From the IMG/VR virus record IMGVR_UViG_3300042564_006016, positions 1 through 54,562 of that record: a DNA stretch of 54,562 nucleotides; one strand, written 5' to 3'. The DNA is from a virus (Duplodnaviria; Caudoviricetes). The position numbers and the translations under genes are program-made. The notes under the pieces are model-generated. The model did not search any database and had not been told where the DNA came from. It saw only the letters and a program-made list of their open reading frames with translations. This document shows, piece after piece, positions 379-49,350 of this stretch (position 1 is the stretch's first letter; each line of letters opens with the position of its first letter).

Positions 379-720
379 TTAATCTTGGACTTCTTTAATT
401 TTTTTAAGAAATGGATCATACTCCGTTTCTATCTTTTTTTTGTAGATTCCAATTGGAATTACAAGAGGGGCATGCTCTTCATGCGTAATAACTGCTGGGG
501 CTTCTTTGACCTCTACATATTGAGTCGCCTTAACATCGTCAAAATAGAAGTTAACAATTCCACCCTTAGTAGGGGTAATTACATGGGCGTTGCCAGTGTG
601 TTCTCCATACTCAATGGCAGTACCATTTTTGTGGTTATTTTTGATGTTTTGAATTTTTGCTGTTTTTGGGATTGAAGAGACTTTAAGCAAGTCAACATCT
701 CCATGTGTAATATTAGACAT
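379..720 (-). CDS. Conserved small His-rich protein (HGDV / GEHTGNAH / HEEH / EYDP), neighbour of the DUF6745-like gene
   Basis: ORF track 379..735; ATG at 720 preferred because it lies 6 nt after a consensus -10. Confidence 0.75.
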   Translation of the reverse strand: MSNITHGDVDLLKVSSIPKTAKIQNIKNNHKNGTAIEYGEHTGNAHVITPTKGGIVNFYFDDVKATQYVEVKEAPAVITHEEHAPLVIPIGIYKKKIETEYDPFLKKIKEVQD

Positions 721-726
721 AAAAAG

Positions 727-755
727 ATTATACAATATACATAAAGTAATGTCAA
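727..755 (-). promoter_or_regulatory. Consensus sigma70-type promoter, probably leaderless transcript
   Basis: TTGACA(755-750)-17 nt-TATAAT(732-727), ATG at 720. Confidence 0.85.
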
Positions 756-807
756 ATAATTATTTTGCATTGAAGTTTTGACAAATTACCAACTTTAACT
801 AACACTA

Positions 808-1168
808 AAAAAGATTACACGGTGAATTCACTGGGTATCGGTCTGGATTAGCCGTAGGTTTGAATCCTTAAATTATTCTATAGCATACAAGTAAATAGGG
901 TTCTATCCTATGCTTTATGTTCTGGGTAACTAGGCATATAAAGCTTGTAATAATATCCTAAAGGGTTAAATGCTAGAAAATACCACTTTAGCTCTGCCAG
1001 CCTATAAAATTTCTAGTTGTAAAGAGGTGGGCAATGACAAAAATCAACTAGACGGCTCTACAGCTCTTATTCTAGTTTGGGCTGTAACTGAACAATTACT
1101 ACAAAAAGGAAGCGGTGAATATCTGTAACTCCTTTTTAGCCTTCTGCCTTTGCCGAGGGCTTTTTGTT
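808..1168 (+). ncRNA. Candidate ~350-nt structured ncRNA of unknown class
   Basis: ORF-free; 5' TTACA..ATTCACTG (815-833) pairs with CGGTGAATATCTGTAA (1113-1128); several internal helices; TTGACA at 778; terminator at 1139-1168. Confidence 0.65.
1139..1168 (+). terminator. Intrinsic terminator
   Basis: GCCTTC...GAGGGC stem followed by TTTTTGTTT. Confidence 0.65.
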
Positions 1169-1228
1169 TGAGGTAAATATAAACTTTTGACAAAAACAAA
1201 TAATTAGAGTTTTATAGGGAAGTAGATT

Positions 1229-1331
1229 TTAGTTAATTGAATAGAGGGTAGGTAATTTGAGGGTTGGCTTGACGGTTATCCTGAGAGTTTTCTACACTCC
1301 ATTCAGCTAATTAAAAGCTGTAAAACCGTCA
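1229..1331 (+). promoter_or_regulatory. Structured 5' leader (long hairpin plus pseudoknot) of the initiator gene
   Basis: 1229-1251 pairs with 1292-1314; loop TGACGGTT (1270-1277) is complementary to AACCGTCA (1324-1331), 3 nt before ATG. Confidence 0.6.
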
Positions 1332-1334
1332 CCT

Positions 1335-2192
1335 ATGCACTGGAAACAACCAATCACAACAGAGTGTCTTAAAATGGACACTGCAACTCGTCTTATTTTT
1401 ATGGAAATAATGATAAGAGCAAGAAATGAGGATATGACCTATCCTGAATTTATTAGACACGGAAATAAAAACATTTCTTACCAACTTAAAAGAGGGCAAT
1501 CTTTATTTTTATCTTCAAATTTAAAAAATGTTGGTTTTACAAGAACGACAATAGAAAGAAGTTTAAAATTACTTTCCGATAAAAATTCAGCAATCAATAT
1601 TGCAATCAATCGACAGCCATTTGGCTTTATTATATCAATAAATAACTATGATGAGTTAGTTAGCATTGCAATCAATAGTGAAATCAAACAACAATCAAAC
1701 AGCAATCAAACAACAATCAAACAGCACGCCAATAACAAGAATGTTAATAATGATAAACCTGTTAAGAGTGTAGAGATTAATTTGGAGGCTCAAGAAATTT
1801 TAAACTTTTACAACGAAACTTTTTCTAAGAATTTCAAAACCGCTGTAGGCTGGGAAAAGAATTTTAAATTTTGGCTGACACACTACAACCTAGACGAAAT
1901 CAAAACTGCAATTAGAAATTTAAACCACCCTAACTGGTGGGCAAACAAACCCAAGAATGGTGAATCAGCTGAATTAGCTAAACTTGACTTTTTGTTTAGG
2001 AGGTCAAACTCGAAAGGTGACTGCGATTATATCGGAGAACTTTTGAATTTAGGTGAAGTTGAAAATAAGCAAGAACCAGAAAATGTTTATCGAATGAGTA
2101 GGAGTAAGTTTGCAACCGAAGAGGAGCTACAAAGAGAGCTTGCCTACTATGCTGAGTGTTTACCTCAGTGGAAAGTAATTTTAATTGATTAA
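1335..2192 (+). CDS. Phage replication initiator (lambda O-like)
   Basis: N-terminal LKRGQ..wHTH-like region, low-complexity iteron linker, C-terminal helical domain; directly upstream of DnaB. Confidence 0.8.
   Translation: MHWKQPITTECLKMDTATRLIFMEIMIRARNEDMTYPEFIRHGNKNISYQLKRGQSLFLSSNLKNVGFTRTTIERSLKLLSDKNSAINIAINRQPFGFIISINNYDELVSIAINSEIKQQSNSNQTTIKQHANNKNVNNDKPVKSVEINLEAQEILNFYNETFSKNFKTAVGWEKNFKFWLTHYNLDEIKTAIRNLNHPNWWANKPKNGESAELAKLDFLFRRSNSKGDCDYIGELLNLGEVENKQEPENVYRMSRSKFATEEELQRELAYYAECLPQWKVILID
1590..1725 (+). repeat. Iterons / probable replication origin inside the initiator gene
   Basis: GCAATCAA x3 plus four tandem AATCAAACA(A/G)C units at 1682-1725. Confidence 0.7.
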
Positions 2193-3788: not shown

Positions 3789-3916
3789 ACTCTTATGTCC
3801 TCCTACACCCTCCACCAAACAATCCACGACCTAACCCCAACCCAACAAGAACCAATTAAAAAAGCAAGAGATTTTTTTAATTCTATGTGGAATTTGTAAA
3901 TGGTAATAAGTAAAAT

Positions 3917-4201
3917 ATGCCCAAAATAACAACCCAACCAACCCCAACTAAAAACCTCTCTTGGGTTGACAGCCAAAATCTTGAAATATTAGAAGATTGG
4001 CAAATTAATATACAAGAACACTTTCAAGAATATCCAGAAGTTAAAAATAAGTATTTAGCTATGGATTTTGAGGAGTTTAGCAAGGAGCTAAGCACTTACG
4101 CTGAAAGGCTTTCAAAAATGCTTATGGCGTGGTATAGTGAAGCAAAAAAAGTACCACACAAACATTTTATGGTAAATAATAATTTAAATCTTTTAAAATA
4201 G
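3917..4201 (+). CDS. Hypothetical protein
   Basis: ORF in tightly packed operon. Confidence 0.7.
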   Translation: MPKITTQPTPTKNLSWVDSQNLEILEDWQINIQEHFQEYPEVKNKYLAMDFEEFSKELSTYAERLSKMLMAWYSEAKKVPHKHFMVNNNLNLLK

Positions 4202-19413: not shown

Positions 19414-19778
19414 CAGTTCACGGCTATTCAACTAAATTTGTTATTACCTTGATTTCGTTGTAATCAAATTGCCCTTGTGGATTTCTTTTTTGGTCTCTAG
19501 TGATATATTTTCCAGCTACTAATTCATTAATATATTTATCAATCCTATCTCTGCCAATAGGTTTTTTGCCTTTGAATAGTGTGTCTAATTCTTCATTATT
19601 AACTTTGATTATATCAGTTTTGTTTGTAAGTCTTGCCACAAGCTTAGACAAGACCGCATAAGCCACGGGGTCAAGTGTATTAAAAGGTAAATCGTGAAAA
19701 CTTTTATAAACATTCATATACTCATATAATCAGTTCACGGCTATAGTATTGTCAAGGGTAAAACCAGTTCACGGCTAT
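19414..19778. repeat. Three copies of CAGTTCACGGCTAT (19414, 19731, 19765)
   Basis: Exact direct repeats flanking the wHTH gene; one lies in its promoter spacer. Confidence 0.85.
19424..19717 (-). CDS. Small winged-HTH protein resembling the N-terminus of phage replication initiators
   Basis: GRDRIDKYINELVAGKYITRDQKRNPQGQF; flanked by three 14-bp repeats. Confidence 0.7.
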   Translation of the reverse strand: MNVYKSFHDLPFNTLDPVAYAVLSKLVARLTNKTDIIKVNNEELDTLFKGKKPIGRDRIDKYINELVAGKYITRDQKRNPQGQFDYNEIKVITNLVE

Positions 19779-47696: not shown

Positions 47697-48980
47697 TTAA
47701 TTTTTAAGCAAATATTTATTTGAAATTACTTTAAAACTTACCCGACCAAAACTTGGGTCTGTAATTTCTTTTAGGGGTCTAAAAACTAAACCTTCAAGCT
47801 CTGTTTCGTCTGCTAAATCTAGCAACTCTTGCATAGTTTTATTTTCTAATTCATGACAAAATCCAGTAATATGATCGTCAAAAGTATCTACACAGTGGGT
47901 TTTAAGTTTTTTAACAAATTCATACATATCGTCAAAATCCAAATACTTTCCTTCATTTATATCATAAACATTAAACACCCTAAAATCAGTACCTTTTATT
48001 TTGTGTGGGTTTTTTTGGATTCCCTCGCCGTAAACCTCACCTTGAACAGCAAAACCTTCAGGAAGCTTGTTTTTTAAATCAAATTTGTTTGCAATTTGCC
48101 AAAATGTATTTGACTCAGTTTCTTTTAACTCTAAATTACGACTACAAGCTCCAAACTCACCATCTTTTTTGTAAAAAGTAGCAGAACTTCCATCGTATTT
48201 TATGCTTGCATACCACCCCAGATCTTTGTATTTTTGCACCATATCCCAACAGTTTTGTATTCTAGTTTCATCTGTTTTGGGTATAAAACTTGGGAAGTTG
48301 CCTTTTGCAATTCCTGCAAGCTCTGGGCTGATAGGTGGCTCGTATTTGTAGATGTTTAAAATTTCGGATAAATCCTCGTTGTTATCTTGAAAAAAGTTTG
48401 TGGCGTGGATATGCTTATCGTTTTTATCAGAAAATAAAACTATTTCAGAGTCATCAAAATCGTCCGCTTTTCTATATGATTGTAAAACTTTATTATTTGC
48501 TAAAATATCTACTACAAAGCCTAAAGCTATAAACTCTTTTTGCTTTCTTTGCTCTTCAGATTGGAACTTTAAAGTTACTCTATCTGGGGTAACTGTAATT
48601 CTAGGTTTTGCTAGGCTTTCTTTGATTATTATTTCGTATTTGTGGTTACTTAAAAATACTCTAGCAATAGGCAAAGCCAAACCTTGGCTAAGTTGCCCTC
48701 TAAGTTTAACAGTTTTTAACCTATAACCTTCTACAACTTCCCCGCCGTCTAAAGTCATTTTTTTAGGGGTATTTCCTTTAGCTAGAAACTCAAAGGTTGG
48801 AGTCAAGGGTAAAAGACTGTCAATTTCGAAATAAACGGCTTTGTCTCCAATCTGAAATTCATCTTTTTTGACTACACATTTCCAGCCTATATTTTCGAAG
48901 GTTGCAAGCTCGATCGAGTCTGCTCCTGGAATTGGTAAAAGTTCTTTGATTGTTTGGATTGTTGCTAGTTTGCGGGACAT
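47697..48980 (-). CDS. ATP-dependent RNA ligase, DRB0094-like family
   Basis: MSRKLATIQ..IPGAD.IE, YFEIDS, KLRGQLSQGL, FPSFIPKTDETRIQN, KYDGSS, GEVYG, EGLV, FKVISNKYL; ATG 48980 preferred. Confidence 0.9.
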   Translation of the reverse strand: MSRKLATIQTIKELLPIPGADSIELATFENIGWKCVVKKDEFQIGDKAVYFEIDSLLPLTPTFEFLAKGNTPKKMTLDGGEVVEGYRLKTVKLRGQLSQGLALPIARVFLSNHKYEIIIKESLAKPRITVTPDRVTLKFQSEEQRKQKEFIALGFVVDILANNKVLQSYRKADDFDDSEIVLFSDKNDKHIHATNFFQDNNEDLSEILNIYKYEPPISPELAGIAKGNFPSFIPKTDETRIQNCWDMVQKYKDLGWYASIKYDGSSATFYKKDGEFGACSRNLELKETESNTFWQIANKFDLKNKLPEGFAVQGEVYGEGIQKNPHKIKGTDFRVFNVYDINEGKYLDFDDMYEFVKKLKTHCVDTFDDHITGFCHELENKTMQELLDLADETELEGLVFRPLKEITDPSFGRVSFKVISNKYLLKN

Positions 48981-48981
48981 A

Positions 48982-49350
48982 TTATTTAGTTCGAAATTGA
49001 GGTATAACTGGACAATTTGGGTCAGCATGATCGTAATAAACTATTTTACGATTAGGGGTTTTACCAAAATCTTTATATAATATTCCACCTCTGCATTTAC
49101 AGTTAGCAGGGGTTTTTGATAATATAAACTTAAATTGGTTTTCATTTAAATAATAAATTTTTCTTTTTTGAGTTCCACCATTAGTTTTAAAATAATCTGT
49201 TTGCTCTGCGACCCTTCCAAAAAGTTCTAACTTAACGGAATATTTTTCAATTATTTGTAAAGTTGATTTGTGTTCAACCCCAAGCTGACTAGCTATTTCC
49301 AAACTAGAAATTACTAAGTCGTTGTTTTTGTTAAAAATTTTTAGAGACAT
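48982..49350 (-). CDS. Rha-family phage regulatory protein
   Basis: ISSLEIA..LG.EHK.....IEKY, GGTQ...YYLNENQ. Confidence 0.8.
   Translation of the reverse strand: MSLKIFNKNNDLVISSLEIASQLGVEHKSTLQIIEKYSVKLELFGRVAEQTDYFKTNGGTQKRKIYYLNENQFKFILSKTPANCKCRGGILYKDFGKTPNRKIVYYDHADPNCPVIPQFRTK

Follow-up and report, generated by a model that had tools for sequence, protein, structure and literature searches.

Here, we analyze a short intergenic interval, positions 808 to 1168, in the DNA of an uncultured tailed phage (IMG/VR virus IMGVR_UViG_3300042564_006016; estimated completeness 52%). The whole 54,562-nt record is called the window throughout. The interval precedes a gene for a putative replication initiator (rep). 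We propose that it is an accessory promoter-RNA-terminator cassette, an "RNA moron", of one lake-phage lineage, a reading to which we assign a probability of about 40%. The wider claim, that the unit is a non-coding, transcribed RNA gene, is reasonably likely, while it is doubtful that the RNA acts on rep. As modeled, the RNA is most likely a chain of independently folding hairpins and not a closed multi-domain fold.

The cassette would occupy a variable slot that separates divergent early promoters from the replication operon. A transcript running from a candidate promoter (P1, start ~813) to an intrinsic terminator (~1168) would be a non-coding RNA of ~355 nt, with 813-880 as its 5′ module, 881-1102 as an insert of 222 nt that is optional, and 1103-1168 as its constant 3′ module. 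Transcription, the RNA ends, in vivo pairing, and the direction of any effect are inferred. The parts of the unit are:

778 to 806, plus strand: candidate promoter P1, with the −35 hexamer TTGACA (778-783) within TTTTGACAAA, a 17-nt spacer, and the −10 hexamer AACACT (801-806)
813 to 1168, plus strand: predicted non-coding transcript, long form, ~355 nt, with a strand-asymmetric fold and no known family
820 to 833, plus strand: 5′ hairpin, CGG-UGAAUUCA-CUG, with the first copy of the 8-mer CGGTGAAT; pair probability 0.91-0.93
881 to 1102, plus strand: optional central insert, swapped for 6 nt in a short form found in metagenome X21
886 to 950, plus strand: three-way-junction domain, containing a hairpin (912-944) with a GUAA tetraloop
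1012 to 1052, plus strand: hairpin A, with an 8-bp stem and a 25-nt loop; the sole helix with a compensatory change
1059 to 1086, plus strand: hairpin B; pair probability 0.91-0.97
1103 to 1137, plus strand: 3′ hairpin, with the second CGG-UGAAUAU-CUG; within the constant 3′ module of every variant form
1138 to 1168, plus strand: intrinsic terminator, a stem (1138-1161) followed by the U-run CUUUUUGUUUG

A sequence-only reading of this DNA had described the interval as a stand-alone RNA gene, free of open reading frames (ORFs), with TTGACA at 778 and an intrinsic terminator. The TTGACA and the terminator are both present. The TTGACA equals the −35 consensus, the −10 hexamer matches its consensus at 3 of 6 positions, and the interval between the promoter-like site and the terminator is apparently non-coding, with no ORF of more than 55 codons from stop to stop. 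The terminator-containing module (1103-1168) folds with z −3.04 (1 of 200 shuffles as good). Two substitutions in the terminator, 1139 G>A and 1154 C>G, occur together in loci L002/L003 and metagenomes X16 and X19, and 1154 C>G occurs alone in X21; the stem is still strong in every variant. The TTTTGACAAA element also heads the promoter-like site of the rep operon (P3, at 1185), an extra cassette in L002/L003, and the cassettes of L005. In total, the P1 motif is common to seven other promoter-like sites of the phage group, and in a by-eye alignment the hexamer at 17-nt spacing ends in T at all eight. One X21 contig carries 805 C>A, which turns AACACT into AACAAT. The transcription start is predicted near 813.

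The unit is found in a single phage lineage. It is present in 24 listed runs of lake-water and freshwater metagenomes (23 studies, 2017-2025), and 13 of these contain half or more of the sampled words of 808-1168. In IMG/VR, exact patterns from the RNA (854-878, 1108-1132, 1020-1044, and 849-869) were each found, besides the window, solely in IMGVR_UViG_3300042880_001026, which is 99% identical; two IMG/VR records thus carry the RNA. A blastn search of 50,697 phage records (INPHARED) gave no match, and 185,579 species genomes yielded neither a match to pattern 850-869 nor a prophage relative; the window itself contains no paralogue of the RNA. Searches with Rep, DnaB, and the N- and C-terminal Rep domains in IMG/VR and JGI metagenomes returned the same phage, the loci L005 and L009 (71% and 65% Rep identity, respectively), and the 28% relatives L006 and L007; the same searches in genomes returned no match. 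The RNA was not found in the L005, L006, L007, and L009 loci, where blastn of 760-1340 matched the promoter motif only, nor in the whole record behind L009. Collecting homologues, a check proposed with the sequence-only reading, therefore yielded near-identical copies from one lineage only. The suggestion of an undescribed RNA thus stands as far as Rfam is concerned and is narrowed by this distribution.

We find that the slot upstream of rep collects small candidate promoter-terminator cassettes. In L005, the region upstream of rep (200-540) holds two to three units, each comprising a TTTTGACAAAA site, ~50 nt, and a terminator; L009 has none. In L002/L003 and X19, position 1171 is followed by an insertion of 148 nt that contains a TTTTGACAA site and a terminator of its own. 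In L003, this extra unit lies at 3831-3985 (between window positions 1171 and 1181), with a TTTTGACAA(A) site and an intrinsic terminator. The 355-nt unit of the window is the largest cassette seen in the slot. Phage morons, a concept from lambdoid phages, are accessory insertions between conserved genes that carry a promoter and a terminator of their own. Like morons, the unit has a promoter-like site at one end and an intrinsic terminator at the other and is present or absent among syntenic relatives, and its slot holds other small units in L002/L003 and L005. Unlike morons, its cargo is apparently an RNA and not a protein gene, and the transcript is a prediction only.

Natural variants were obtained from metagenome contigs of 4 of the 24 listed runs, aligned on 560-1420. 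In X21, a short form in three contigs, with agreement from both sides, has 881-1102 (222 nt) replaced by 6 nt, which joins the 5′ module (775-880) straight to the 3′ module (1103-1217). It occurs with two 5′ alleles (1 and 7 differences), and its leader differs after 1217. X21 also carries a variant of the first CGGTGAAT loop (A825T and deletion of 829) that retains CGG/CUG. An X19 contig spans 957-1171 with four differences and is entirely unlike the window upstream of 957. A second X19 contig keeps 1294-1330 and then continues into a different gene, with its ATG two bases further on. Across contigs, the breakpoints fall at 880/1103, 957, 1171/1181, 1217, and 1330. Because of these X19 and X21 forms, we regard the predicted RNA unit as modular: its 5′ module is followed by a 222-nt middle that is optional and by a 3′ module that is constant.

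The same variants bear on coding. The sole ATG-started ORF in the interval (970-1128, 52 aa) has AAAGGG before its ATG, and neither small ORF has a Pfam or PHROG match. In X19, C1045T changes codon 26 from CAA to TAA, and in X21 the ORF is removed with the loss of 881-1102. Since one variant stops the frame and another deletes it, the unit is not protein-coding, as judged from these sequences.

Two of the four X19 differences, G1019A and C1045T, replace the closing G-C pair of hairpin A by A-U. Four random substitutions would include at least one change of this kind, on both sides of a pair and with pairing kept, with a probability of 0.006. This compensatory change points to selection on pairing, in RNA or in DNA, and favors the cassette reading. 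In the loop of hairpin A, AGAGGTG (1023-1029) is followed by a 5-codon mini-ORF, probably by chance.

The plus strand folds better than the minus strand. For 808-1168, the plus strand reaches −95.5 kcal/mol (z −2.07; 3 of 100 shuffles as good) and the minus strand z −0.49; with the terminator module excluded (808-1102), the values are z −2.18 and −0.19. The junction module (881-956) has z −2.84 (0 of 200 shuffles as good; minus strand z −0.05), and 1005-1092 has z −2.30. The description of the interval as highly structured is thus only weakly supported: the whole unit is moderately above chance against shuffles, and z ≤ −2.6 is reached in 2 of 20 control windows.

Pair probabilities were taken from the ensemble of 813-1168 under a nested model, which is unable to score pseudoknots. 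The complementary words listed in the sequence-only reading are all in place, and of the nine interactions that it named (the ends counted as one), three are likely in the ensemble and the rest improbable. Well-formed helices are 912-920/936-944 (0.96-0.99) and 1059-1066/1079-1086 (0.91-0.97), followed by 1012-1019/1045-1052 at a moderate 0.50-0.59. Pairing is weak for 850-855/1052-1057 (~0.1), and lower still for 881-886/970-975 (~0.02) and 886-891/945-950 (about 0.00-0.01). The closing helix said to pair the ends (both parts ~0), the T-loop-like stem 856-858/866-868 (0.00-0.01), and the possible pseudoknot (~0, though the nested model cannot score pseudoknots) gain no thermodynamic or comparative support. 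The 8-mer CGGTGAAT occurs exactly twice in 54.5 kb, at 820 and 1113. Both copies lie inside the RNA, each as a 3-bp stem (CGG/CUG) with a UGAAU-containing loop; at least two matches of the 8-mer arise in 7 of 100 window shuffles. The interval also holds a 10-nt palindrome, GTGAATTCAC.

Like trans-acting small RNAs that end in a terminator, the predicted transcript has a 3′ stem-loop and U-tail with a further hairpin before it, and its 5′ part varies while its 3′ module stays constant. At ~355 nt, it exceeds the usual length of such RNAs two- to threefold.

No known RNA family is recognized. Rfam 15 gave 0 matches at the gathering score across the whole window, and at E ≤ 10 the region 700-1340 gave three chance-level matches only (12.9-16.1 bits against cut-offs of 35-60). 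The absence of transfer-messenger RNA (tmRNA) features also agrees with ARAGORN, which reported 0 tRNA or tmRNA by default and with -ps, and with the lack of an Rfam match. Three candidates were rejected. A permuted tmRNA was called only at the 60% ARAGORN threshold, among six calls in 641 nt. A tRNA-like element (832-917) was called at the 80% threshold only, a setting that produces 23 calls in the window and 16 in a shuffled version of it. A likeness of 1006-1024 to a Cas12a repeat handle was set aside, as its stem would fail to form and CRISPR-repeat families gave no match at E ≤ 10.

A catalogue of more than 10,000 candidate structured viral RNAs includes IMG/VR-derived elements of 29-151 nt, for which matches in at least three unique IMG/VR regions were required (PMC10690425). 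As described there, those candidates resemble the present unit in being intergenic phage elements from IMG/VR-type contigs with a Rho-independent terminator. Unlike them, this RNA is ~355 nt long and occurs in two IMG/VR records only. Since so few records carry it, membership in the catalogue, as far as its described requirements go, is unlikely.

Five features downstream of or within the unit bear on a possible target:

1051 to 1069, plus strand: candidate pairing segment, complementary at 16 of 19 nt to 1312-1330
1187 to 1215, plus strand: P3, the promoter-like site of the rep operon (TTGACA-17-TTTTAT), not listed by the promoter scan
1223 to 1320, plus strand: rep 5′ leader hairpin, long and imperfect; z −2.23, 6 of 200 shuffles as good
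1312 to 1330, plus strand: candidate target, −23 to −5 from the rep start codon; X19 keeps it and swaps the gene right after 1330
1335 to 2192, plus strand: replication initiator gene rep, with weak PHROG matches to replication initiation protein and DnaD-like loader

Control of the replication initiator in trans is the most tangible mechanism that can be proposed; in it, 1051-1069 would pair with 1312-1330 just upstream of the rep start codon. In a phage poor in Shine-Dalgarno (SD) sequences, pairing beside the start codon would block initiation or trigger cleavage. SD-like 4-mers at −20 to −4 occur at only 6 of the 43 gene starts in the whole window, with A/T-rich upstream regions, which points to a host with little Shine-Dalgarno use. 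The two segments form the longest inverted repeat in 700-1340. A complementarity of 16 was reached in 4 of 300 dinucleotide shuffles of the RNA (p ~0.01), and the best of 24 control upstream regions reached 14. In duplex energy, rep ranks first among the 43 start regions, and 5 of 1000 target shuffles are as good. The window, L002/L003, and X19 contain segment as well as target, and X21, L005, and L009 contain neither, a co-occurrence that is consistent with a functional pair.

The architecture recalls the P4 CI RNA and the c4 RNA of phages P1 and P7, same-strand regulatory RNAs of ~70-80 nt that form the Rfam family "C4 antisense RNA". Like P4 CI and P1 c4, this RNA precedes, on the same strand, the operon that it putatively controls, and it would act through an inverted repeat shared with the downstream leader, here at 16 of 19 nt beside the rep start codon. 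Unlike them, it has no Rfam match even at E ≤ 10, is ~355 nt long with its own terminator and no processing from the operon transcript, and has its candidate pairing segment in stems, not in a loop.

A more specific version is a long shot: a modular regulatory RNA of a new sequence family, with a constant scaffold (the twin CGG-UGAAU-CUG hairpins and the terminator), an exchangeable rep-pairing insert, and a portable 957-1330 stretch. Here, RNA and target leader (957-1330) would constitute a replication-control or immunity module that could be placed before different initiator genes, as X19 suggests. Should the RNA be expressed and act on the rep leader, an uncultured, SD-poor freshwater phage would possess an RNA-based replication or immunity switch, and a regulatory RNA could travel with its target leader, as one cassette, from one initiator gene to another. 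If instead it is no more than an accessory chain of hairpins, it adds one more lineage-specific phage small RNA candidate.

The rep leader hairpin is a separate element, kept in three diverged phages (window 1223-1320, L005 566-670, and L009 2908-2990). Among these, 6 of 24 pairs are changed on both sides, in a compensatory manner. On this comparative evidence, the predicted leader hairpin is a better-supported structured RNA element than the 808-1168 unit.

Several results weigh against the cassette reading or its proposed target. The promoter scan did not call a plus-strand promoter at 778, because AACACT matches only 3 of 6 positions. The modules 808-880 (z −0.83) and 957-1102 (z −0.58) are unremarkable, and single-module z values are not rare, since 2 of 20 windows of 76 nt, taken arbitrarily in coding sense from this phage, reach z ≤ −2.6. 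Covariation in hairpin A amounts to one pair in one contig at a depth of 4.97, and the change is equally compatible with a DNA hairpin. Conservation is uninformative: between the window and L003 there are 0 differences over 150-812 and two in the RNA, so that the left flank (100%) exceeds the RNA (99.4%), with rep and dnaB ~2.5% different. None of the 24 listed runs is recorded as RNA, which is uninformative on expression either way. As to rep, its lead over the next-best target is 0.2 kcal/mol only; segment 1051-1069 is not a free seed because it lies inside the stems of hairpins A and B; and its co-occurrence with the target reflects about one evolutionary event among near-identical sequences. 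Finally, since the short form lacks the pairing segment, control of rep cannot be the function of the core RNA.

Three other explanations deserve weight, though we regard each as unlikely. The first is a cis-acting leader or attenuator. The P1 transcript would then form the long, structured 5′ part of the rep operon mRNA, the terminator at 1138-1168 would be conditional (antitermination or attenuation), and long-range RNA pairing with the P3/leader region would set rep expression. The unit has the same orientation as rep and directly abuts it, and the complementarity between 1051-1069 and 1312-1330 fits this arrangement as well. Folded as one molecule, 1000-1345 reaches z −3.92 (0 of 100 shuffles as good) with a long-range helix (~1001-1020/~1199-1218). 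However, much of this value is due to the terminators and the leader hairpin themselves, and the helix competes with hairpin A, the only covarying helix. Furthermore, rep has its own promoter-like P3 past the terminator, and relatives without the RNA retain P3 and leader, with P3-equivalent sites upstream of rep in L005 and L009. L002/L003 and X19 even place a further promoter-terminator unit between the RNA and P3.

We give similarly little credence to a protein-binding or decoy RNA (anti-defense or sponge), in which the twin CGG-UGAAU-CUG hairpins would serve as binding sites for a protein of host or phage and the middle as exchangeable cargo. The exact pair of CGGTGAAT hairpins speaks for this: both copies lie in modules retained by the short form, and X21 alters the first loop while keeping CGG/CUG. 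A variable early-region slot is also a common place for accessory genes. Against it, the 8-mer recurs by chance in 7 of 100 shuffles, and no CRISPR-repeat or other Rfam family matches at E ≤ 10.

Nor is it probable that the stretch lacks any RNA function. In that reading, recombination between phages would have produced a mosaic spacer that insulates the rep operon from the divergent early promoters, and the promoter-like and terminator sequences would belong to neighboring units. Breakpoints that fall at five places in different contigs, the absence of the RNA from rep relatives, weak fold statistics in two of four modules with 2 of 20 control windows at z ≤ −2.6, and conservation no higher than in the flanks would all suit a spacer. 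Evidence against a spacer comes from the compensatory exchange in hairpin A, the strand-biased folding, the recurrence of the full promoter-to-terminator architecture as a pattern in relatives, and the retention of the stretch in the 24 listed runs.

The original proposal, in which paired ends close a single large, highly structured multi-domain RNA of a new ribozyme or scaffold class, is very unlikely. In its favor are the length of ~355 nt, the lack of a known family, and the GNRA-capped three-way-junction domain (z −2.84), with the whole unit at z ~−2.1. Against this, the closing helix, T-loop stem, and pseudoknot have pair probabilities of ~0, and the tRNA-like call appears at the 80% threshold only (23 calls in the window against 16 after shuffling). 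Natural variants do without the central 222 nt or have a different 5′ half. One base pair shows covariation in the contigs compared, and the RNA is confined to a single lineage and absent from the nearest rep relatives. The multi-domain claim is therefore not upheld.

Compared with the large ornate bacterial and phage RNAs of Rfam (GOLLD, ROOL, OLE, and raiA; cf. 10.1101/2024.12.08.627333), the unit is similar in being a long, predicted non-coding RNA of a lake-water phage with a GNRA-capped junction domain. Unlike them, it has no Rfam match, no covariation-backed long-range architecture, an optional middle, and a single lineage. With one covarying pair, near-identical copies only, and improbable long-range helices, it does not belong with the large, complex-structured non-coding RNA classes.

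Lastly, a reading of the region as a gene for a 52-aa protein (970-1128) preceded by a long leader, or as an origin, operator array, or similar DNA element, is highly improbable: the AAAGGG before the ATG and the palindrome GTGAATTCAC are outweighed by the X19 stop codon, the X21 deletion, the lack of a family match, the position of iteron-like repeats in rep (1682-1723) and not in 808-1168, and the strand-biased folding.

These repeats are tandem copies of the 11-nt AATCAAACAAC (3.8 copies, 93% matches, 1682-1726), located inside rep, where they separate the regions for its N- and C-terminal domains. Such repeats are probable iterons of the origin, which is therefore probably not in 808-1168. 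The Rep protein is a domain mosaic: four relatives (P0004, P0005, P0008, and P0009) share its C-terminal domain at 78-96% identity and have unrelated N-terminal parts, and P0004 and P0009 carry PF14297.

The unit lies in a 600-nt gap between a leftward 113-aa gene and the rightward genes for the replication initiator and DnaB. The remaining neighbors are:

720 (ATG), minus strand: 113-aa ORF, matching phrog_27831, a family without assigned function
727 to 755, minus strand: leftward early promoter PL, a full sigma-70 consensus, TTGACA-17-TATAAT (12 of 12 matches), back to back with P1
2195 to 3391, plus strand: DnaB, downstream of rep

The predicted start of PL coincides with the ATG of the 113-aa ORF (718-720, minus strand; a predicted start), and the mRNA of this ORF may be leaderless.

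PHROG matches to terminase, portal, major head protein, head protease, and tail spike identify a tailed phage, with further matches to DnaB helicase, exonuclease, RNA ligase, and methyltransferase. Terminase relatives among cultured phages (tblastn) are all below 60% identity and belong to Clostridium, Flavobacterium, and Alteromonas phages. The RNA ligase-family match is a 443-aa ORF (47697-49028, minus strand; phrog_968, E 1.9e-71).

Two further repeats were observed. TAGCCGTGAACTG has three exact copies (19414-19777, minus strand) in an intergenic region upstream of packaging genes, among several promoter-like and terminator-like sites. With up to two mismatches it has five matches in the window, a count that 0 of 100 shuffles reach. 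A 12-nt tandem repeat, AACCTGATCCCT, is present in 12 copies at the left end of the record (3-147) and likewise in L003 (2450-2810). It lies inside an ORF that is open at the contig end and encodes xQVx repeats on the minus strand. The assembly probably broke inside this repeat, and the minus-strand ORFs at both ends of the record could be joined if the genome is circular.

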